IMG/VR virus record: IMGVR_UViG_3300034110_000285
Span: 1 to 27,307 of that record
Reading direction: 5' to 3' (one strand)
DNA length: 27,307 bases
Source: a virus
Lineage: Duplodnaviria > Caudoviricetes
The notes below the pieces were generated by a model. It saw only the letters and a program-made list of their open reading frames with translations. It had not been told where the DNA came from and searched no databases. Positions 1,433 to 27,307 of the stretch are shown piece after piece. The translations under genes were made by a program, and so were the position numbers. Each line of letters starts with the position of its first letter. The first letter of the stretch is position 1.

Positions 1433-4400
1433 ATGCTTCCTCCTGAAAATATTCTAGCAGAAGAACTGCTAACCGAGGTGTTAGACATTAACACCTCAAA
1501 ATCTTATGACTTCGTAGAAACAGACCCAAAGGACATTCCTGCCTGGGCGGGTACGCCTATCGTTTATGAAGTAACATTCGAAACTGAAAACAAAAAGCAA
1601 TACGCAGTTCGTGTCTTTAAAAATAACCGGTATGGTGCAAACACACGTTGCATCTGCGTTATGCTCAAGAAACAAATTAGATGGTCGCGTACCCTTGTTA
1701 TAGACCCATCAACATTCAAAGCTGTTATGGTTACATTGCTGAAAGCGTACTCTGCATACAAAGATACCACTGATGGTAAAATGGCATCTGGTATGATGGT
1801 GATCATGCAGAACGGCATTAACGATAGAGCAGGGTTGCTTGTAAAGGCGATCTCTAGATCATTCAAAGCAGAGCCTAAGAAAAAACTGTCGTTCTACGCG
1901 GCCACTGATGAAGGTAAACGAGACAGCACGTGGTTGTTCTTCACTATCAACTCCTCACCATATCCTTTCTTCAAAGGTAAGCAGTTTAAAGCGGAATGGA
2001 CTGTATCACCACTGTTTAAGAAATTGTCTGGCGCCGATTCAGTTATAGCAGCGAAAGAAACACCTGTTATGGCAGTGGGTATAGACCAACAGAAATCCAA
2101 GCCTGATGAGACGGAAGAGAACTACGCCTATGCTGAAATATTGTCAGACAAGGTTAGATACGAGTATCATGGTGCTGTTGTTGAGAAGGGTTCAATATTC
2201 AAGTTCAAAACAGCTTACGTGAAAGTCTTAGAAGATCATGTGATTGCAATAACCTCTGAAATAGTTTCACCTGAAAAGGGCGTCCAAGCAGCTGGTGTTA
2301 GAATCAGAGTGCCTAAAGCAGGTAACGACAATACTAAGATGCTCAGTGCCGCCGAGTACATTCAGAAAAAAGCAGACCTGCTAGAAAAAGGCGAAAAGCC
2401 TAAAACAGCGCAGTCGCCTACACAAAAATCACAACCTACGGCGATTGAGTACATCTACGTTGAACTCATAGGAGATGGTGCAAAACTTAATTTCCCTGGT
2501 TCACCTTTGCCAGTAGGCACCTTACTTAAATTCATGAAAGGTGATAGTAAGGTATTGTCCAATAGCAAGATGACAATCCAGGTAAGAGTCCTTATCACAC
2601 CTGATGGCAAAACAGTTTATGACAGGGCCGTGACAGTACCTATGTCAGGAGATATCACATCTGTTATTCCTATGGAAGTGTATGAGAAGAAAAAAGCAGC
2701 GATTGAATATGGTGAGGTAAGTGGTGAGCCAACACCTGTTACTGTAGCAGAGCCAGTGAAGGTAGAGGTAGAGCCTACATACACGTCGAAGGAATGGAAG
2801 TTCATGTTCAAGAATGGATATGAAATCACAGTGGACAATTTCGTAACATTTGACGATGATTTCAACTACTTCATAACCAAGACGGATGCGATAACAACTG
2901 TTCTAGAGGTACCACTGCCAGTGGGGACTTTTGTTAAGTACAAGTTTAATGGTCAGGCATCTGGCAACAACCAGTACATCATCGTTCATGCCGAAGAAGT
3001 CATTTACCCTAATGGCTCTTATGCAAACAATCTGGATTTGATTGTAGAAGATGACTCGTTTGTAAAACATTCAAATGAAACTGCGTTCAACACGAAAAAA
3101 GATGAGGCTGTTCAGGCGGGTACTCTTAAGAGCCTTAACAACGTGGGGAAGGTTAAACAAGATACACTTGCATCAACTGAGCTAGACGCAGCACCTAAAG
3201 TGATTAAGATGATAACACAATCGGGATCATCATCACTTCCGGCAGGAGCATTAGCAAACGTTATTGAGTTCTTCCCCGCAATCACCTCTCATGCGGTGAT
3301 AAACTATAAGATACCTAACTCAGTAGAAAACTATTTCCTGAACAGTGGTGACCCTCTGATCATAGTGTCACCAACAGACAACTCTAGTAAGTTTGTTGCG
3401 TTAAGCGTTATGAAAGAAGGCATTGGTTATGTCTATGTGAGCGGTAAAGGGTATAAAGATAAGTTAGCACAGGCCAAGGCCAACACCGCTGTGGCAGAAG
3501 TGCCAGACTCACTACCACCTGCGCTTAAGATAACCGATAAGCCTGTGTCTGAGTTTTATAGCGACCGCTTCAAAGATTGGGTGAAAGCAAATAGACCTAA
3601 CCTTACGAGCTCAGTTGAGTTTATGCCTGGAGTGACTATTGACTTGCCTGAGTACGACTTCTTGGCATTAGGTGAAAAACTTAGAACCATTGGTGAGGCA
3701 TTCGGTACTCAAGCTGCCATCACTAGAGACAGAGCAAACGTTCTGTTAGGTCAATTGAGAAACAAGTCAAGTAGCATTGCGGACTTTATAGAGTCCCAAA
3801 TTGAACAAACAGGGTTATACCTCAAGCCAGGATCAAAAGGTGTTGCTGGTGTCAAGGCATATAGCGGAACAGACTATTCTAGAATCAACGACTACATCAG
3901 AAAACCACCTGAAGAAGTGTCCTCATACAACACAGAGACCTTGGATAAGATTAGAAAGATAGATGACGCCTTCAGACTGTATGGCATACGTTTACCTAAA
4001 GATCTTCCAGTATATCGTGGTGCGTCTATATCAGATGCTGATGTTGCGGCTTTGGACAAGGGCGGTGTTCATGTGATGGATTCATATTCTTCTGCTTCAC
4101 TTAAAACGTATACAGCAGAGGATTTCTTCAGAGCGCACCCTGAAGTTGGTGTACTGAGTATCACACAGACTAAAGACAATACTCCAGTCACTATAGACTA
4201 CTCTATTGGCAGTAAACAAGGTAATAAGATATTCTTTACCATTAGAGGACTGGACAGATGTATCTCGTTATACATTGCTCAAGTATCACAATTCTCCCAT
4301 GAGAAAGAACTACTAATCAACAGAGGTACCTCAGTTAAGTGTGAAGTGTCTCCAACGACAGGCGGACTTACAAAACCTGTTTTGGTTCATAAGTCTAAAA

Positions 4401-4600
4401 ACGGGGTAAAATGTTGGGCGGCAAGGGTAACCGTTGCTAACTCACTCACTGAGTCCACAGTTAGTTTCAGATCGCTGTTAGAACAAAGATCACCTGACAT
4501 GAAGGAGCTGTTAGACATGAACGATAAGTATGGATTGATCATGTATAAACTGCAACTCATCTTGGACGACGCGGAAGAAGAAGAGTTAAACAAAGATTAA
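1433..4600 (+). CDS. alt: Alt-like NAD:protein ADP-ribosyltransferase, probably virion-packaged (1055 aa)
   Basis: C-terminal VIP2/C3-type ART motifs: YSGTDYSRINDYIR, VYRG (catalytic Arg), SYSSAS (STS-like), HEKELLINRG (ExE). N-terminal ILAEELLTE resembles gp21 prohead-protease L/I-x-E sites, as in T4 Alt. Confidence 0.82.
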   Translation: MLPPENILAEELLTEVLDINTSKSYDFVETDPKDIPAWAGTPIVYEVTFETENKKQYAVRVFKNNRYGANTRCICVMLKKQIRWSRTLVIDPSTFKAVMVTLLKAYSAYKDTTDGKMASGMMVIMQNGINDRAGLLVKAISRSFKAEPKKKLSFYAATDEGKRDSTWLFFTINSSPYPFFKGKQFKAEWTVSPLFKKLSGADSVIAAKETPVMAVGIDQQKSKPDETEENYAYAEILSDKVRYEYHGAVVEKGSIFKFKTAYVKVLEDHVIAITSEIVSPEKGVQAAGVRIRVPKAGNDNTKMLSAAEYIQKKADLLEKGEKPKTAQSPTQKSQPTAIEYIYVELIGDGAKLNFPGSPLPVGTLLKFMKGDSKVLSNSKMTIQVRVLITPDGKTVYDRAVTVPMSGDITSVIPMEVYEKKKAAIEYGEVSGEPTPVTVAEPVKVEVEPTYTSKEWKFMFKNGYEITVDNFVTFDDDFNYFITKTDAITTVLEVPLPVGTFVKYKFNGQASGNNQYIIVHAEEVIYPNGSYANNLDLIVEDDSFVKHSNETAFNTKKDEAVQAGTLKSLNNVGKVKQDTLASTELDAAPKVIKMITQSGSSSLPAGALANVIEFFPAITSHAVINYKIPNSVENYFLNSGDPLIIVSPTDNSSKFVALSVMKEGIGYVYVSGKGYKDKLAQAKANTAVAEVPDSLPPALKITDKPVSEFYSDRFKDWVKANRPNLTSSVEFMPGVTIDLPEYDFLALGEKLRTIGEAFGTQAAITRDRANVLLGQLRNKSSSIADFIESQIEQTGLYLKPGSKGVAGVKAYSGTDYSRINDYIRKPPEEVSSYNTETLDKIRKIDDAFRLYGIRLPKDLPVYRGASISDADVAALDKGGVHVMDSYSSASLKTYTAEDFFRAHPEVGVLSITQTKDNTPVTIDYSIGSKQGNKIFFTIRGLDRCISLYIAQVSQFSHEKELLINRGTSVKCEVSPTTGGLTKPVLVHKSKNGVKCWAARVTVANSLTESTVSFRSLLEQRSPDMKELLDMNDKYGLIMYKLQLILDDAEEEELNKD

Positions 4601-6632: not shown

Positions 6633-7508
6633 ATGGACTTGCGTTACACAGAAATTTTCTACTCCATTCAGGGCGAAGGCAAGAACACAGGTCGTTTGTG
6701 TACATGGCTCCGCACTTTCAGCTGCACATTAGAATGTATGGGGTTTGGACAGGAAGAGCCAGGCAATCCTGAAACATGGCAACCTCAGTACAGCAACGAA
6801 GAAGTGATTGCTATTAAGACTGTTAAGGACGTACCTACGCCTAAATACGGTTGCGACTCTGCATACAGTTGGTCTAAACAGTTCAGACATGTTGCTCTGA
6901 AAGAAGACACTGCCGTCATTGCAGAAAAAATTAAAGCATTAACTCCGAACAACTCGTTCCAGTCTAAGATAGGGCATGTCTTTACTGGTGGTGAGCCTTT
7001 AATGCACCAACGAGCACTGGTTGAAATCCTTCAGCATTGGTTGGACATGGGCGATATCCCTGCTTGGGTATGCTTCGAGACTAACGGCACTGTAGAATTA
7101 TGCGAAGAGCTGATTGACATTCTACTCACTTATGAGTCCTTTCAAACAGAAGTCTACTTCTCAATCTCTCCTAAGTTGTTACATGTTGCAGGTGAACAAC
7201 CAGAGAAAGCGATTAAGCTAAGCGTGATTAAAGACATTACAGCTAACTTTCCGTATTCTTACCTTAAGTTCGTGCTTAACATGGACACTCGTGCATGGGT
7301 ACAAGCACACGATATAGTCAGACGACTGAATGAAAATACTGCGCTGACAGTGCCATATGATGTTTGGGTAATGCCTGTGGGTGCTACGTTCGAACAACAA
7401 GACGACGGTCAAGCAGGCAAGATTGCAGACATTGCAATCAGCCACGGTTGGAACGTGAGCCCTCGTGTTCATGTTATGTTATGGAAAAATGATCAGATAG
7501 GTAGATAA
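6633..7508 (+). CDS. queE: 7-carboxy-7-deazaguanine synthase QueE (radical SAM)
   Basis: EIFYSIQGEG, LRTFSCTLEC...GCDS, FTGGEPL, FETNGT, SISPKL and SPRVH are the QueE signature motifs. Confidence 0.93.
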   Translation: MDLRYTEIFYSIQGEGKNTGRLCTWLRTFSCTLECMGFGQEEPGNPETWQPQYSNEEVIAIKTVKDVPTPKYGCDSAYSWSKQFRHVALKEDTAVIAEKIKALTPNNSFQSKIGHVFTGGEPLMHQRALVEILQHWLDMGDIPAWVCFETNGTVELCEELIDILLTYESFQTEVYFSISPKLLHVAGEQPEKAIKLSVIKDITANFPYSYLKFVLNMDTRAWVQAHDIVRRLNENTALTVPYDVWVMPVGATFEQQDDGQAGKIADIAISHGWNVSPRVHVMLWKNDQIGR

Positions 7509-7510
7509 CC

Positions 7511-8137
7511 ATGATTGAAGTTCACAGCACTAAAAAATATGTAAACCTTCCTTGCGGACACGCACAGTTTTTTGACAAGAAGGCAAATGGTACTCCAGGT
7601 CATTGCGCAGCTGTTCACGGCTACGACCGATCAGTGGAGATCACGTTCTCTGGCACTGTCGATGAAAATGGATGGATTGTTCCGTTCGGTGGACTGCAGA
7701 AAGTTAAGCAGTTCATTGAATACTACCAAGACCACGTGACGTGCTTGCCTGCTAATGATCCTCGGTTGGAAAAACTTATCCAAGACGGACACACAGCAGT
7801 GGGTGGTGTATTAGGTACACTTCGCGTTCTGCCTTATGGCGTATCGATGGAAATGACATCACTGTTCTTATGGGAACATTTATCTCTTTTCATTACACAT
7901 ATGACTCAAGGGCGTTGCTACATCTCTAAACTTCAAGTGTTCGAGCATGAGCGGAACTCCGGCTTTGTAACAGTGGATCGCAAAACAGCGATGACTCATT
8001 ACGACAACTATAAGAAATCCATTATGGAGACTGATCCACTTGGAGAAGGTTTGTTGACGTTAGAGTGGTATGACTATTCGCCTATCCTGCCATTCGAAGC
8101 ACCACAAGACGCACTCAACCGGCTAAACGAGCAATAA
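7511..8137 (+). CDS. queD: 6-carboxy-tetrahydropterin synthase QueD (T-fold)
   Basis: GHAQ...HCAAVHGY zinc/catalytic motif, NGWIVPFG, QDH, SMEM and VFEHERN; adjacent to queE. Confidence 0.88.
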   Translation: MIEVHSTKKYVNLPCGHAQFFDKKANGTPGHCAAVHGYDRSVEITFSGTVDENGWIVPFGGLQKVKQFIEYYQDHVTCLPANDPRLEKLIQDGHTAVGGVLGTLRVLPYGVSMEMTSLFLWEHLSLFITHMTQGRCYISKLQVFEHERNSGFVTVDRKTAMTHYDNYKKSIMETDPLGEGLLTLEWYDYSPILPFEAPQDALNRLNEQ

Positions 8138-8145
8138 AACACGAT

Positions 8146-8178
8146 AAATAGCACTTTTAAAAAAAGTGCTATTTTTTT
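8146..8178 (+). terminator. Probable intrinsic terminator
   Basis: AAATAGCACTTTT/AAAAGTGCTATTT followed by a T-run. Confidence 0.6.
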
Positions 8179-8284
8179 GAAAAAAGACTTGTACATATTC
8201 TGAAAGATGTTATTATAAATGTGTGGGCAGGAACAACAACTGCAAAACAAAGTGAACACTAACTAAACAATGAAGGATTTTATT

Positions 8285-8731
8285 ATGAACGCAATCAAAA
8301 CTGTAGCAAAAGAAGTTAAAGTAGCAATCGCAGTAGAAGCAGTAAAAACTCCAGGCACTAAAGCAATCGTTTTAGCAACTCAATTTAACGTGAGCGAAAG
8401 CACAGTGCGCCGCGCGATCAAAGAGTTTGAAGCAGAAGCTAAAGCATTGATCGAAGCAGAAGCTAAGGCTCAAGCAGACGCAGCAACAAAACCAGTTAAA
8501 GCAAAACGTGTTAAAACTCCAACTGTACCGACTGGCCCACTGGGTTATAAAGGTCGCAACGGACGTTGGAATATCATCAACAGCGTGATCAGCGAACTGG
8601 GCTACGATGCAGAATTCAGCACAATCTACGTAGAAGTATGCAAACGTTCAGTAGCACAAGGCCTAACTGAACTAAACAAGAACAGCTTCCGTGCAATGTT
8701 CGCATACGCTAAGAAGAACGCTAAAAAATAA
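8285..8731 (+). CDS. Basic HTH DNA-binding protein
   Basis: ATG at 8285 after AAGGA; AIVLATQFNVSESTVRRAI is a typical helix-turn-helix; Ala/Lys-rich linker. Confidence 0.7.
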   Translation: MNAIKTVAKEVKVAIAVEAVKTPGTKAIVLATQFNVSESTVRRAIKEFEAEAKALIEAEAKAQADAATKPVKAKRVKTPTVPTGPLGYKGRNGRWNIINSVISELGYDAEFSTIYVEVCKRSVAQGLTELNKNSFRAMFAYAKKNAKK

Positions 8732-8786
8732 TGAAAGCAACTGAAACGCCCTTAATGGGCGTTTCATCACCATAGGAATAAAGTCG

Positions 8787-10091
8787 TTGAAAAATAGAAT
8801 TGAATATGTCATTTCAGGCACCACCCATACCAAGATAACAATTCCTCTTGCTGACGACCCTACTCTTATAGATGTGGTAAGAAAAGCCATCACAAGAGTT
8901 AACACGTTCTCTGATAACTCTAGTTTTGGCATACTGTATAACGCTATGACAGAGAAAAACCTAGTTGAGCGTATACTTAGATATGAAGAATGCTTCAGCT
9001 CTATACACTCCGACTCAGGCGGGTTACAGGTTATGCAGCAAGGCAGGGTATTGGACGAGTCCTTACTCAGTACGATATTTGCAAACCAGGTGAACGGTTC
9101 ACACGTTGCAATGAGCTTCGATAGCATCCCTATTAAAATTGTTGGTCCAGGCGACCCTAGAACTAACATGGCAATCAAGCGATACATTGCATCTGAAAAC
9201 CTTGAACATGGCATCAAGAGCGGCAAGTATCTCAGAGCCCAGTTGGAATACTTTGCAAACAACCCAACACGTTTCAACTGCAAACCCCTAGTTATCTTAC
9301 AAGGTAACAGCCTACAAGACTATCAGGTATACCACGACGCTATTATGTCACAAGTTCCTGCAGAGTTACATTCAGGTATCGGTGGTTATGCAATTGCAGG
9401 TAGCGCAATAGGTATCGGTGCTCTAGAGGCACTTGATAGCATATACTCATTTGACTGTTTAGAAAAACCAGATGTGGTTGGCAACCGTCTGCACTTCTTA
9501 GGCTATGGTTCAATTTCACGCCTAGCACCGGTTATCATATGCAATAATGCAGGTGTATTGAGTAAAAACCACCTAAGCTACGACTCAACAACACACTCCT
9601 CCAAATACAACATGGGGTCTGTAACAGGGCCTAATCTGAAAGACATGGAGTATGGAAAAATTGCAAACAACCCGAAAGCAAAACGTATTTTCGGTATGGT
9701 GTATGACTGCTTCGCGGACATTCTTGCAGCTAGTGGGTACGCACGTGACGAGTGGGTGAATACAGTTGCATCTGAGTTAGTAGGCTCAGAAAAGTTTCAT
9801 ATTGAAGACACTAAGGCTAAGGTTGCACATCTGTCTGGTGTAGCACTCAGTGCATTATACAGTGCCAAAAATTTCATGAGTGCAGTGGACAGCATCAGTG
9901 CGGACCCACAAAAACTCTACGAATATCCAGGCAACAAGAAAAGCATTGGTGCTATGTTACACTTATTAGAGTGTAAGAGTGGCAAAGAATGGTTCAAAAC
10001 ATATCGCCCGAGGGTTGCACGTTACATAACGTCCGACCGTATTGAAAGGGTAGAAGATAAAGAGGTGAGCTTTGAAGACTTGTTTATTTGA
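8787..10091 (+). CDS. dpdA: TGT-fold guanine transglycosylase (DpdA-like, probably DNA-directed)
   Basis: TGT motifs HSDSGGLQ, SFDSIP, ILQG, GGYAIAG, LHFLG and SYDST; no canonical tRNA-TGT zinc motif seen; lies among que genes. TTG start after AGGA. Confidence 0.75.
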   Translation: MKNRIEYVISGTTHTKITIPLADDPTLIDVVRKAITRVNTFSDNSSFGILYNAMTEKNLVERILRYEECFSSIHSDSGGLQVMQQGRVLDESLLSTIFANQVNGSHVAMSFDSIPIKIVGPGDPRTNMAIKRYIASENLEHGIKSGKYLRAQLEYFANNPTRFNCKPLVILQGNSLQDYQVYHDAIMSQVPAELHSGIGGYAIAGSAIGIGALEALDSIYSFDCLEKPDVVGNRLHFLGYGSISRLAPVIICNNAGVLSKNHLSYDSTTHSSKYNMGSVTGPNLKDMEYGKIANNPKAKRIFGMVYDCFADILAASGYARDEWVNTVASELVGSEKFHIEDTKAKVAHLSGVALSALYSAKNFMSAVDSISADPQKLYEYPGNKKSIGAMLHLLECKSGKEWFKTYRPRVARYITSDRIERVEDKEVSFEDLFI

Positions 10092-10500
10092 TGTTGACGG
10101 TGTCATTGTTGATACAGTGACACCTTTCCTTGAGCAGGGCAGTGACATGAACTACTGGCTCAACCCAAAACTGTACGATAATCTCGACCCTCATCCTGAC
10201 ACATATAAAGCAATGGATATGTTGAAGCATGCTGGATATCATGTGGTCATCTGTAGTACCACGTTCTGTGAACATGTATATAGCAAGCATAAGTTTTTAC
10301 GCTTACATTTCCCACATGTAGACAGTGTGTTCATGCGTAATAAGCACCTATACCCGTGTGATTTGGTTATAGACGACCGAGAAATTGTTATGGACGGCTT
10401 TAAAACTGCTCAGCCTGGTGCTAAACTTATACTGACGTCTTATGGACGTGTTTTATCAGATGTTAAGAAATTTCTGGAGGATAGCAATGTTTGCACCTAA
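10072..10500 (+). CDS. HAD-superfamily phosphatase, 5'(3')-deoxyribonucleotidase-like
   Basis: Motif I FDVDGVIVD, motif II ICST, K..FL..HFP, motif IV K....D LVIDD. Confidence 0.85.
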   Translation: MKTCLFDVDGVIVDTVTPFLEQGSDMNYWLNPKLYDNLDPHPDTYKAMDMLKHAGYHVVICSTTFCEHVYSKHKFLRLHFPHVDSVFMRNKHLYPCDLVIDDREIVMDGFKTAQPGAKLILTSYGRVLSDVKKFLEDSNVCT

Positions 10501-11329
10501 TAACGTACCACACTTCCACCACAGATCAACGGAGTTCATGAACACGTATGAAAATTGTGTGAAGCTGTTCAAGTCGAAGTTTTCAATCCCACAAGAAAGC
10601 ATTGTGTTGTTCGTCACGGGCTCAGCCACGACGGCTTTAGAGTCTGTCCTGTTCAGTATTAATAAAGATGTTGAGGTAGTCACAACGGGTGGGTTCAGTT
10701 CTCGTCTGTTGAAATCTGCCATCGTGTATGGAAAATACTCTTTACAAGATCAAGATTCAGCGACAATGTCTGTTAACTATGAAACAGGCAAGTCTGAAGT
10801 CTATGTAGGTGATCTAGCAACACTTGCTGACTGTACATCTTCATTTCCATACTACACACCTCAAGAAGATGTGTGGGTAACTACGACATCAAAACAACTG
10901 GGTTCAGTGACAGGGTTGTCTGTTATTGTTATCCGTAACCAGGAAGTGATGGATCAGTTGTTTTACGGAGAATGTCAATCATACTTGAGTGTTGCACGTT
11001 ACTACGAATTCAGCAAAAAGAACCAAACACCAAACACACCTAACATTGACGCGTTCGTGGACTTAGAACAAAGACTGCGCCAGTTCGACTTAGATGCATT
11101 CCGCGCTAAGGTAGACTCACGTCGTACTATGGTTGTAGACATGTTGAACTCTAAAGGTGTTGCAGTGATTGGTGAAGGGCCTGTTGTGACTGTGGCTCAA
11201 CGTCTAGGCGTATTGGAAGATGAATTTGGTATGTACAAAAATACCTTAGGCCAGCCTCAGTTGTTTTTATGGTCTGGTACTGATGCGCAATACGAACAAT
11301 TCATTAAACGTGGGAGCGAGTTATTATGA
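10487..11329 (+). CDS. PLP-dependent class V aminotransferase (serine-pyruvate/alanine-glyoxylate/PhnW-like), compact
   Basis: ATG at 10487 after GGAGG; HRSTEF, TGSATTALE, YETG, ADCTSS (PLP Asp), TTSKQLG (PLP Lys) and QTPNTP. Confidence 0.85.
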   Translation: MFAPNNVPHFHHRSTEFMNTYENCVKLFKSKFSIPQESIVLFVTGSATTALESVLFSINKDVEVVTTGGFSSRLLKSAIVYGKYSLQDQDSATMSVNYETGKSEVYVGDLATLADCTSSFPYYTPQEDVWVTTTSKQLGSVTGLSVIVIRNQEVMDQLFYGECQSYLSVARYYEFSKKNQTPNTPNIDAFVDLEQRLRQFDLDAFRAKVDSRRTMVVDMLNSKGVAVIGEGPVVTVAQRLGVLEDEFGMYKNTLGQPQLFLWSGTDAQYEQFIKRGSELL

Positions 11330-11946
11330 AAGGTGTTGTATGCCATCTAAGCGGTGGTTTTGATTCACTAGCATCCACATTGCTAGTAGCAGTCACAGGC
11401 GCACAGTTCTGCACCGTGTTTTATGACATCGGGCAACCGTATGTTTCACAAGAGAGACAGGCGGCTAGAATTGCGTCCGCTCGCCTGACTCAGCTGTTCA
11501 CAGAATACAAAGGGCATTATGAGTATTCATTGCCTCTGATGTTGGCGAACACTGTTAATGCTGATTATGTACCGGTTAGAAATTTGGTACTAGGCGCACA
11601 CTCTTGCAACATGGCAGTATCTTTAGGTTATGACCATATTGCAGTAGGCAACAAAACTCTAGAAGTAAGAGAAGGCGATAGTCACTCATTTTCAGACTGT
11701 TCTGTGCCTTTCTATTCAATGCTCGGCGATGTTGCCACATTTGCGTCTGAAAAGCAGAAACTGACATTCCTCATGCCTCTGATTGTAGACGGGGTGCCTA
11801 TGAGTAAGGCCGATGTTATTGATTACATCAGCTCACATGGCTTTGACGTCAGTAAACTGTGGTCTTGTTATAACAATGAAGAAACTCCTTGCGGTGTATG
11901 TTACCACTGTGAAGAAATTAAGAAAGCAAACCGTTGGACCTTCTAA
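11326..11946 (+). CDS. queC: 7-cyano-7-deazaguanine synthase QueC-like
   Basis: PP-loop LSGGFDS, YVPVRN, FSDC, MSKADV and zinc site WSCY...PCGVCYHC. Confidence 0.88.
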   Translation: MKGVVCHLSGGFDSLASTLLVAVTGAQFCTVFYDIGQPYVSQERQAARIASARLTQLFTEYKGHYEYSLPLMLANTVNADYVPVRNLVLGAHSCNMAVSLGYDHIAVGNKTLEVREGDSHSFSDCSVPFYSMLGDVATFASEKQKLTFLMPLIVDGVPMSKADVIDYISSHGFDVSKLWSCYNNEETPCGVCYHCEEIKKANRWTF

Positions 11947-11984
11947 CAGGCCCTTCAAATCAATATCAAAAATTAGGAAATTCT

Positions 11985-21209: not shown

Positions 21210-21238
21210 TTGACACAAGTGGCAGAAGACAGTAAAAT
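21210..21238 (+). promoter_or_regulatory. sigma70 promoter
   Basis: TTGACA(21210)-17-TAAAAT(21233). Confidence 0.75.
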
Positions 21239-21275
21239 AACGACATACAGCAAACAATGTGAGAAGGAATACATT

Positions 21276-21669: not shown

Positions 21670-21746
21670 GGCCCTGTAGCTCAATTGGTTAGAGCGTACG
21701 ACTCATAATCGTCAGGTTCCTGGTTCGATCCCAGGTGGGGCCACCA
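21670..21746 (+). tRNA. tRNA with CAU anticodon, probably Ile2 (lysidine-type, reads AUA); elongator Met not excluded
   Basis: Full cloverleaf GGCCCTG...CGA-CTCATAA-TCG...GGTTCGATCC...GGGGCCACCA; acceptor and anticodon stems resemble enterobacterial tRNA-Ile2. Confidence 0.92.
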
Positions 21747-21748
21747 CA

Positions 21749-21825
21749 GCGCTCTTAGCTCAGTTGGATAGAGCATGTGCCTTCTAAGCACAGGGTCACT
21801 GGTTCGAATCCAGTAGGGCGCGCCA
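21749..21825 (+). tRNA. tRNA-Arg (UCU)
   Basis: Cloverleaf with anticodon arm TGTGC-CTTCTAA-GCACA, T loop TTCGAAT and encoded CCA. Confidence 0.95.
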
Positions 21826-21879
21826 TATACTTCTACAATGTATTTCAAGATAGATGCATTGTAGAAGTGTATAATAAAA

Positions 21880-22094
21880 ATGCACTTCATTAACCAACTT
21901 TCGGTTGGAGTTTGTCGTTGACAGCCGGGAAAGACCGGCATCTAACTAAGAGATTAGGTTACAGGCTGCTTAGTTAATGACCTGTAAGATGTGTTGTCCA
22001 GTTGTAGCAACGGACAAAAGAGTCTGAGCAATCGTAGTTTGTTTTATCTACGGCTGTAATTGATATCCTCTCCATAACAAGAGGGGATATTTTT
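21880..22094 (+). ncRNA. Candidate structured non-coding RNA(s)
   Basis: Consecutive hairpins CCAAC/GTTGG, GCCGG-GAAAGA-CCGGC, TTACAGG/CCTGTAA, TTGTCC/GGACAA and CGTAG/CTACG, ending in the terminator-like ATATCCTCT/AGGGGATAT+T; no credible ORF. Confidence 0.5.
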
Positions 22095-22104
22095 AAAATA
22101 GTTG

Positions 22105-22132
22105 TTGACAGCGTGAATAAACACTGTACAAT
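22105..22132 (+). promoter_or_regulatory. sigma70 promoter upstream of the ncRNA array
   Basis: TTGACA(22105)-16-TACAAT(22127). Confidence 0.7.
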
Positions 22133-22161
22133 AGACAACGTAAAGACGAAGAAAGTGTGTT

Positions 22162-22234
22162 TTAGAAAGGTTCCCATACAGCAAACAAAAACTTGCTTAC
22201 TTTTGGTGTTAGCGCACAAACGGGACCTGTCTAA
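22162..22234 (+). ncRNA. Array unit 1: possible Gln(UUG)-like anticodon stem-loop cargo
   Basis: Stem AGGTTCCC/GGGACCT; cargo GCTTAC-TTTTGGT-GTTAGC (7 nt loop, one mismatch). Confidence 0.65.
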
Positions 22235-22297
22235 AGGACACTTACAGCAACACAAACAAACATTTGACTTTTAATCAAAACCGTTAATTGTGTCCTG
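22235..22297 (+). ncRNA. Array unit 2: tRNA-Lys(UUU) anticodon stem-loop cargo
   Basis: Stem AGGACAC/GTGTCCT; cargo TTTGA-CTTTTAA-TCAAA (22263-22279). Confidence 0.8.
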
Positions 22298-22302
22298 CAC
22301 AT

Positions 22303-22447
22303 TAGAACATTGAAAAGGGCTCTTACAGCAACAAACAAATTGCACTCAGGAGCACGTGGGGCCGGTTCGAATCCGGCACTCCCGAACAGACGGGAGTTAG
22401 TGTATTGGTAGCACACGTAAAGAAAAAGAGCCCTGTTCAATGTTTTA
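22303..22447 (+). ncRNA. Array unit 3: circularly permuted tRNA-like body (YrlA/Y-RNA-like)
   Basis: Stem AGGGCTCTT/AAGAGCCCT; T arm GCCGG-TTCGAAT-CCGGC, closed acceptor ACTCCCG-AACAGA-CGGGAGT, then D arm TAGTGTATTGGTAGCAC. Confidence 0.82.
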
Positions 22448-22454
22448 AGGTGTT

Positions 22455-22582
22455 TTAGAAAGAACTCATACAGCAACCAAAAATACGCCTGCTAAGCGAG
22501 AGGTCGTTGGTTCGAGTCCAACCACTCCACTCCAGGAGTGTAGCTCAGTCGGTTAGAGCGCTTAAAAATGAGTTCTGTCTAA
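22455..22582 (+). ncRNA. Array unit 4: Ser(GCU)-type anticodon loop plus circularly permuted tRNA-like body
   Basis: Stem AGAACTCAT/ATGAGTTCT; CGC-CTGCTAA-GCG, T arm GTTGG-TTCGAGT-CCAAC, CACTCC-ACTCCA-GGAGTG, D arm TAGCTCAGTCGGTTAGAGC. Confidence 0.82.
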
Positions 22583-22696
22583 AGTGCCTTTACAGCAACA
22601 TTAAACCAAACCGAGGGTCGTTGGTTCAAGTCCAACCTAGTCGAAAGGCAAAGTAGCTCAGTTGGGAGAGCATCGGTCCAAAACCATGAGGCACTG
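22583..22696 (+). ncRNA. Array unit 5: circularly permuted tRNA-like body
   Basis: Stem AGTGCCTT/GAGGCACT; ACCGA/TCGGT closes T arm GTTGG-TTCAAGT-CCAAC, a GAAA-capped imperfect acceptor and D arm TAGCTCAGTTGGGAGAGC. Confidence 0.8.
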
Positions 22697-26693: not shown

Positions 26694-26702
26694 GTTTAAA
26701 GC

Positions 26703-26739
26703 GGATAGATTCAGCAACATGAACTATTCAACTATCCCG
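26703..26739 (+). promoter_or_regulatory. Leader copy of the stem-CAGCAA motif
   Basis: GGATAG-ATTCAGCAA-linker-CTATCC, between the promoter and the RBS of the DUF2828-like gene. Confidence 0.6.
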
Positions 26740-26760
26740 TACTATACAATGAGGTGAAAT

Positions 26761-27307
26761 ATGTCAAATTTATTTAATGCAGTTAACTCAGGCAACCATC
26801 GTACTCTAAACGGTGCAGCAACACATGGTACCACCAACAGCGCATGTTTAGATTTTTATTCTATCGCAGGGGCGTCTCGTGGTAAAGATATTAGCACTCA
26901 GTTTTCAGCAAGTTACCGCGAAGACCCTTCACTGACACTCAAAATTCTTTTCTGGTTGCGTGATGTTCGTGGTGGTGCAGGTGAGCGTACTCAATTCCGT
27001 AATCTCATCACTCAAGTTGTTACAGACAGCAATGTATTCGCTGTCATGCGTAAAATTGTAGAACTTGGCCGCTGGGATGACTTGCACGTCTTCTTAGAAA
27101 CCAAGTACGATGATCTGATGGTCTCAATCACCGCAGACGCTTTAGTCCAAGGTAATGCCTTAGCAGCAAAATGGACACCTCGTAAAGGCGTTATGTTCAA
27201 TCAGTTGCGTAAAAAGATGGAACTGACTCCAAAAGAGTTGCGTAAACTGTTAGTGAACTTGTCTAACACCGTGGAGCAAAAGATGTCAGCAGGCAACTGG
27301 TCAGAAA
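26761..27307 (+). CDS. DUF2828-like protein (Ro60/TROVE-related), 5' part; runs off the window
   Basis: Absent from the ORF track because it is truncated. GAGGTG RBS; my translation gives RTLNGA, ACLDFY, FWLRDVRGGAGER, GRWDDL, LAAKWTPR and VEQKMSAGNW. Confidence 0.82.
   Translation, partial: MSNLFNAVNSGNHRTLNGAATHGTTNSACLDFYSIAGASRGKDISTQFSASYREDPSLTLKILFWLRDVRGGAGERTQFRNLITQVVTDSNVFAVMRKIVELGRWDDLHVFLETKYDDLMVSITADALVQGNALAAKWTPRKGVMFNQLRKKMELTPKELRKLLVNLSNTVEQKMSAGNWSE

Follow-up and report, generated by a model that had tools for sequence, protein, structure and literature searches.

Five predicted small-RNA genes arrayed in a phage genome fragment: candidate tRNA-shaped baits on a predicted Ro60-like DUF2828 ring

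We analyzed a linear virus record of 27.3 kb (Caudoviricetes; IMGVR_UViG_3300034110_000285, positions 1 to 27,307; hereafter the window), which is ~13% complete. The window contains an array of five predicted small-RNA genes and, 4 kb away, the beginning of a gene for a DUF2828 protein. The motif TACAGCAA occurs five times in the array, at 22177, 22243, 22324, 22469 and 22591 (the cluster spans 22177-22598), and seven times in the whole window, where 1.39 occurrences are expected and none of 100 shuffles reaches seven. In each unit, the motif is preceded by a stem of 7-9 bp that starts with AG and whose partner strand, at the far end of the unit, ends with CTG; stem and motif together form what we call the handle, and the enclosed sequence is the cargo. 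Units 1 to 5 are 62, 63, 120, 117 and 114 nt long. This common plan, with its complementary 3' strand, had been read from the sequence in an earlier note and is confirmed by folds and shuffles. Specifically, the terminal stems form in computed folds with pairing probabilities mostly of 0.86-1.0 (0.77 in unit 1 for two inner pairs and in unit 5 for the final pair), and of 2000 dinucleotide shuffles of the array region 1999 yielded no unit and one yielded a single unit. The five stems differ in sequence while their pairing is kept, also as claimed. Folding of whole units is strong for units 3 and 4 only (z of -4.6 and -2.8; -1.1 to -1.4 for the others).

Upstream of the array lies a sigma70-type promoter-like site, TTGACA-16-TACAAT (22105..22132; plus strand, as for all units, the tRNA genes and the DUF2828 gene), with 11/12 consensus matches, which agrees with the promoter previously assigned to the array. 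No terminator-like site was found after unit 5. Given the promoter-like site before the array and the lack of a terminator-like site after it, the simplest inference is a single transcript that is processed at the spacers. A flank on the upstream side is common to units 1 and 4, and the junction between units 1 and 2 is the same as that between units 4 and 5, so the proposed duplication of flank and junction is present.

The cargos, described before as tRNA-derived, can be specified further. Unit 1 (22168..22229) has a 7-bp handle stem, TACAGCAA and an imperfect hairpin (22195-22213) with an anticodon-loop-like 7-nt loop, UUUUGGU (possibly Gln UUG); cargos of this type recur in loci L024, L048, L058 and L080. 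Unit 2 (22235..22297) combines a 7-bp handle with a bare tRNA-Lys(UUU) anticodon arm (22263-22279), which has a 5-bp stem and the loop CUUUUAA and shares 15 of its 17 nt with the E. coli lysT arm. Units 3 (22316..22435; 9-bp handle), 4 (22461..22577; 9-bp handle) and 5 (22583..22696; 8-bp handle) carry circularly permuted tRNA bodies, in the order T arm, closed acceptor stem, D arm. The opening point of the permutation lies within the anticodon stem in units 3 and 4, where the loop and lower pairs are placed first and the upper pairs follow the D arm. The split stem of unit 3 has an 8-nt loop holding CAG, and its closed acceptor stem is 7 bp long; that of unit 4 has a Ser(GCU) anticodon loop (22489-22495), and its 6-bp acceptor stem is closed by a loop ending in CCA. 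Unit 5 has the topology of the bacterial Y RNA YrlA, with a 5-bp anticodon stem that lacks an anticodon loop and a degenerate acceptor stem. Among 331 distinct units of the wider family (a few are probably false), this junction pairing is found in 20 of 32 permuted units, versus a mean of 5.5 and a maximum of 14 over 5000 shuffles, and 1-10 in slid registers. Elsewhere in the family, conserved cargos of 155-240 nt that are not tRNA-like sit on the same handle (L150 7523-7919, L152 2420-2819, L153 3236-3633 and relatives); they had no Rfam match in the loci tested, and one class has a CUGGAG...UGAAG internal loop and a T-loop-like hairpin. In an Rfam scan of 10 DUF2828 loci, tRNA families alone reached the cut-off.

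Permuted bodies raise the question of whether the long units are pre-tRNAs that are processed to working tRNAs, the short units being decayed copies. Permuted tRNA genes exist (bioRxiv 10.1101/312249). YrlA of M. smegmatis is cut by RNase P and receives CCA, and the acceptor stem has at least 7 bp in 28 of 36 permuted family units. CCA is in place in just two of these 36, however, most acceptor loops are ~4 nt long, and in unit 5 the anticodon loop is missing and the acceptor stem broken. Furthermore, bare anticodon arms with perfect stems recur in many phages, which would not be expected from decay. Overall, we consider this explanation very improbable: with closed acceptor stems and CCA so rarely in place, the RNAs are not chargeable as encoded, and the closed stems argue against a decoding role. 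ARAGORN called none of the five units as a tRNA, and none is a colinear cloverleaf with a free NCCA end.

The DUF2828 gene (26761..27306) runs off the end of the window after 182 codons. The fragment was supported by tblastn (42% identity, E 5e-40) and by the Pfam DUF2828 profile (E 3.5e-12), and it matches phrog_850, annotated as an RNA-binding protein (E 5e-46). DUF2828 homologues were identified in 710 of 50,697 phage records. A structure model of one homologue, L018 (pLDDT 80.8), has the HEAT-repeat and vWA ring fold of Ro60 (Foldseek and VIA), and the structures nearest to the modeled ring are RNA binders; the phage DUF2828 protein is thus predicted to be a Ro60-type ring. Divergent forms, some of ~580-605 aa, occur in G003, G004, G018 and G019, where the profile matched in two pieces. 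In cellular genomes, a single-protein scan, an insensitive one, revealed no DUF2828, and 121 loci retrieved with a loose pattern from one of 64 parts contained neither a TACAGCAA unit nor DUF2828.

The earlier note had proposed a modular handle-plus-cargo RNA family tied to DUF2828 and akin to Y RNAs, and family-wide analysis supports all of this. Units were defined by a G-started stem of at least 6 bp, the motif NNC[AC]GCA[AT], a CYG end and a length of at most 230 nt. At 80 DUF2828 loci picked by protein alone (the best 80 of 573), units were present on the strand of the gene in 72 and at least two units in 58, versus a unit in 8/80 on the opposite strand and in 2/80 shuffles. Control gp41 loci had a unit in 2/80; one of the gp41 loci held a DUF2828 gene at its edge, where no unit was called. 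If the stem was not required first, 84 of 138 TACAGCAA occurrences near a DUF2828 gene closed a stem, versus 0/42 and 0/153 in controls. Searching from the RNA side, we found a unit in 43 of 124 pattern loci. After four same-contig duplicates and one record were dropped, 38 unit-bearing contigs remained (four alignment rows derive from these contigs); 30 encode DUF2828, including all eight that are near-complete, and none of the 38 encodes the canonical TROVE domain (PF05731), the window contig itself being a fragment. Units or clear variants were present in five of five cultured phages, namely Felixounavirus, KVP40-like, cluster L mycobacteriophage, Listeria and Campylobacter phages; those of the mycobacteriophage differ in their end bases and were identified by eye. 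In mycobacteriophage Miley16 (L300 6535-6800), three handle units, one with a T arm, lie just downstream of a gene annotated as 'Ro-like', and their end bases differ from the AG/CTG type. Across the family, the first pair is A-U in 296/331 units and T follows the CYG end in 250/331 (the G-C pair and CYG are preset by the descriptor).

Many units lie in the leader of the DUF2828 gene itself, ending within 60 nt of its start codon in 41 of 76 loci. In Vibrio phage phi-pp2 (L299 ~11930-11980), the ribosome-binding site lies inside the leader handle, whose 3' strand holds the DUF2828 start codon. The position of these units suggests that the protein binds the handle and represses its own synthesis. 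In the window, a tentative, degenerate sixth handle was seen in the DUF2828 leader (26702..26740, plus strand, with TTCAGCAA at 26710). Since some handles overlap translation starts, the repeats might all be DNA or mRNA signals, such as operators or processing sites, with no stable RNAs made. We give this next to no weight: long-range stems whose sequence changes while pairing is kept, tRNA elbow nucleotides and anticodon loops are sensible only in RNA, and the nearest structures to the ring bind RNA. Alternatively, the RNAs could hold the ring shut or its mRNA repressed until a host nuclease cuts the anticodon loop; the release would report an attack on tRNA. The leader units beside ribosome-binding sites at the 41 loci, some with anticodon loops (L001, L002, L196), speak for such a gate, as does the finding that tRNA cleavage switches on the Salmonella rsr-yrl-rtcBA operon (PMC7790460). 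In most leader units, however, the loop is empty or non-canonical, the terminal stem could stay closed after a cut in a distal loop, and the window array lies 4 kb from the DUF2828 gene; we regard the gate as improbable.

The closest known counterpart is YrlA (RF02553), for which our sources were Chen 2014 (PMC4201824) and Wang 2018 (bioRxiv 10.1101/312249). In YrlA, too, a terminal stem carries a circularly permuted tRNA body, in which T arm, closed acceptor stem and D arm follow one another, and its gene lies near one for a Ro60-fold protein. The topology of unit 5 is the same; a permuted body is present in units 3-5 and absent from units 1-2. Membership in YrlA was nevertheless rejected on score, motif, partner domain and anticodon loop. 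Specifically, units 4 and 5 scored 40.1 and 27.8 bits, below the Rfam cut-off of 69 and over model positions 23-87 of 114 only. The YrlA motif GNCGAAN0-1G, expected close to the 5' end and in place of CAGCAA in the family handle, was found in none of the five window units and in 1/331 family units. The partner is DUF2828/DUF7788 rather than TROVE. YrlA, like unit 5 but no other window unit, lacks an anticodon loop, whereas units 2 and 4 carry canonical loops and many family cargos keep the loop or consist of the arm alone. Unlike YrlA, the family units occur in arrays, with several graft points.

Other phage RNAs are more distant. Thermus phage phiLo encodes a Ro60 with Yrl1/Yrl2 (Hu 2025, PMC12135203; PDB 9KOP, 9L5Y), but identity is ~17%, the RNAs have a CGAA motif, and tRNA cargo is not among the features that the text consulted describes. 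The phage table of Chen 2014 (PMC4201824) has 22 'phage' entries, among which JoeDirt, LeBron, KVP40, Felix and A511 do not appear. Phage tRNAs that evade anticodon nucleases belong to the same conflict and have overlapping anticodons (PMC10264068, PMC12409363); they are described as complete, cleavage-resistant tRNAs that replace the host tRNA, whereas the family units are not chargeable as encoded, and their arm can remain similar to that of the host. Unexplained stable RNAs in phage tRNA clusters are also known from T4 (rnaC/rnaD) and T5; T4 rnaC/rnaD and seven T5 stable RNAs were rejected as relatives, the motif being present in 0/9. The Rfam scan that the earlier note had suggested brought no family to its cut-off on the units. 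The family was found neither in Rfam 15 nor in the literature searched, which left most subscription papers outside; that search also found no paper with RNA as a topic for DUF2828, and the main text of Weinberg 2017 does not contain DUF2828. Overall, the family would work in the manner of Y RNA and Ro60 without belonging to YrlA.

The earlier note did not recognize the handle as a described Y RNA motif. This holds with respect to YrlA, but the handle resembles another described RNA, the Dictyostelium Class I RNA, below the cut-off. Computed for the window contig, units 1 and 2 match RF01414 over its full length (model positions 1-56) with 28.0 bits (E 4.5e-5) and 31.8 bits (E 4.8e-6); the cut-off of 41.5 bits was reached neither here nor in any of 42 contigs, of which the best scored 39.7. 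Hits at E <=0.05 were obtained in 26/33 family contigs versus 0/9 gp41 contigs, and also in 3/14 named control genomes. As described by Kjellin 2021 (PMC7919456), Class I RNAs are ~60 nt long and have an AAG start with an invariant 5' G, a short terminal stem, an 11-nt motif (consensus CCUUACAGCAA) that adjoins the 5' strand, as in the handle, a variable middle and a CUGU end. All five window units have the terminal stem with 5' G, the adjoining motif and a 3' CUG(U). Class I RNAs are eukaryotic, however, with a DUSE promoter, they bind the RRM protein Rnp1A, and no tRNA cargo is mentioned in that account; the array has a sigma70-type site and lies in a virus record. Class I genes were not found outside dictyostelids in that study, whose outgroups were eukaryotes and Myxococcus and whose main text does not contain the word 'phage' (PMC7919456). 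The outgroup candidates rejected there (Table S4) score 25-40 bits, so scores alone are no proof of homology. Given the shared ends and motif, it is plausible that the two converged on a common reader or descended together with one. More far-reaching is the idea, doubtful in our view, that DUF2828 rings of both viruses and eukaryotes read a single ancient RNA module, the TACAGCAA handle. Class I RNAs would then be the eukaryotic branch of this Y-like family, and phages would use the handle as an exchangeable platform from which a set of different anticodon baits is presented to immune systems that target tRNA. One of the rejected candidates, ath_can_1 from Arabidopsis (40 bits; PMC7919456 Table S4), has a G-stem, TACAGCAA and a CTG end, and DUF2828 is encoded by a grass; ath_can_1 is a lead only.

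Strict anticodon loops were identified in 78/331 units from 55 loci, where ~3.6 are expected, and in 47 of 137 short units, where 1.0 is expected. The commonest cargo anticodons are Lys UUU (13), Thr UGU (11), Arg UCU (10) and Asn GUU (6), and up to seven anticodons occur on one stem. U36 is present in 56/78 cargo loops versus 293/749 phage tRNA genes of the same loci, and C36 in 0/78 versus 127/749. U36-A37-A38 is the signal for t6A, and the U36 excess and C36 absence match a model in which the cargos are tethers: they would bring RNA enzymes of host or phage (PNPase, ligases or tRNA modifiers, among them the t6A machinery) to the ring, where RNA would be repaired or degraded, instead of absorbing nucleases. 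Diverse long cargos suit such a general adaptor; RtcB and an RNA ligase are encoded near DUF2828 in Listeria phage LP-125 and RNA ligase 2 in LAh_6. In addition, Y RNA is reported to tether Rsr to PNPase (PMC4201824), and PNPase is bound by phiLo Ro60-Yrl (PMC12135203). However, many anticodons on one stem would be superfluous for a tether, A/T-rich cargos may account for part of the U36 bias, and no ligase was found among the window open reading frames scanned (the contig is only 13% complete). We therefore rate the tether as possible, if unlikely.

For the array itself, the reading that we put forward, with about an even chance of being right, is that its five predicted RNAs, members of a widespread phage family, are tRNA-shaped baits, bound to a DUF2828 ring, against a host defense that cuts tRNA. 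Directly established are the units with their tRNA-like cargos and closed acceptor stems, the presence of the gene in the window, the linkage of gene and units across the family and, for a modeled homologue, the Ro60 fold. One transcript from the promoter would be cut at the A/U-rich spacers into RNAs of 60-120 nt. A search for RNA reads from the array turned up one sequencing run, probably of DNA, that contains only relatives and small pieces and speaks neither for nor against expression. The ring would grip the terminal stem and CAGCAA, shielding the RNA ends, and the cargo, as a bare anticodon arm or a tRNA elbow, would occupy anticodon nucleases and spare real tRNAs. Free DUF2828 protein may also repress its own translation through the handle in the leader of its gene. 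The part in which the shared handle binds the predicted ring as a Y-RNA-like particle is very probable; given such a particle, the bait function is slightly favored. Competitive inhibition of an anticodon nuclease has been raised for YrlA (Hughes 2020, PMC7790460).

AriB of the PARIS system is described as cutting tRNAs with the anticodons Lys UUU, Thr UGU and Asn GUU and as requiring U39 (PMC12409363). U39 is present in 29/31 cargos with AriB-target anticodons versus 61/113 phage tRNAs. Several observations weigh against baits, or against parts of that proposal. U39 is also raised in non-target cargos (11/19 versus 77/217), AriB requires contacts far from the anticodon loop, and the full AriB site is not enriched (6/31 cargos versus 26/113 phage tRNAs); because of the last result, a PARIS-specific reading is not claimed. 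The anticodon and U39 pattern fits baits in general, and equally the recruitment of enzymes that modify position 37. A strict anticodon loop is absent from 253/331 units, including window units 1, 3 and 5. Some 76 long cargos among the 331 units are not tRNA-like and had no Rfam match in tested loci, which points to the handle as a general platform. A cleavable bait would be consumed unless tightly bound or repaired. The loci are related, so the counts are not independent trials. The ring fold rests on a homologue 43% identical to the window fragment, which is cut at 182 aa. Finally, the leader handle of the window was not called by the unit descriptor, and RNAfold prefers another partner strand for it.

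These results suggest a role that can be tested for DUF2828, a common protein of unknown function, and for RNAs missed by annotation in cultured phages. They add another protein branch, which has a motif of its own, to the Ro60/Y RNA system, and the likeness to Class I RNAs makes the role of these Dictyostelium RNAs directly testable. If the cargos are baits, they would constitute an RNA-based counter-defense against anticodon nucleases, and their anticodon spectrum would map the tRNAs that hosts attack.

Upstream of the array, ARAGORN predicted two ordinary tRNA genes, with anticodons CAT and TCT (21670..21825). A near-perfect 18-bp hairpin lies right after the tRNA-Arg gene, within 21828-22060, with a strongly folding non-coding stretch behind it (z of -5.8 for 21828-21975); the region has no Rfam match, a 15-base piece of it is absent from 428 loci, and it is possibly a further RNA. 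A lone TACAGCAA at 21246-21253, near the predicted start of a promoter-like site (21210-21238), precedes a 101-aa open reading frame of no family; lacking a full stem, it is either a chance occurrence or a weak operator. The window also encodes T4-like replication genes (family B polymerase, UvsX, a DnaB-like helicase, a DsbA-like protein), an Alt-like ADP-ribosyltransferase and Que-pathway genes. The ADP-ribosyltransferase domain is C-terminal in a 1055-aa protein (1433-4600), whose family profile covers only 674 positions. Genes for QueE-like, QueD (PTPS) and QueC proteins, together with an unknown 434-aa open reading frame, occupy 6633-11946 and probably form a 7-deazaguanine modification cluster.
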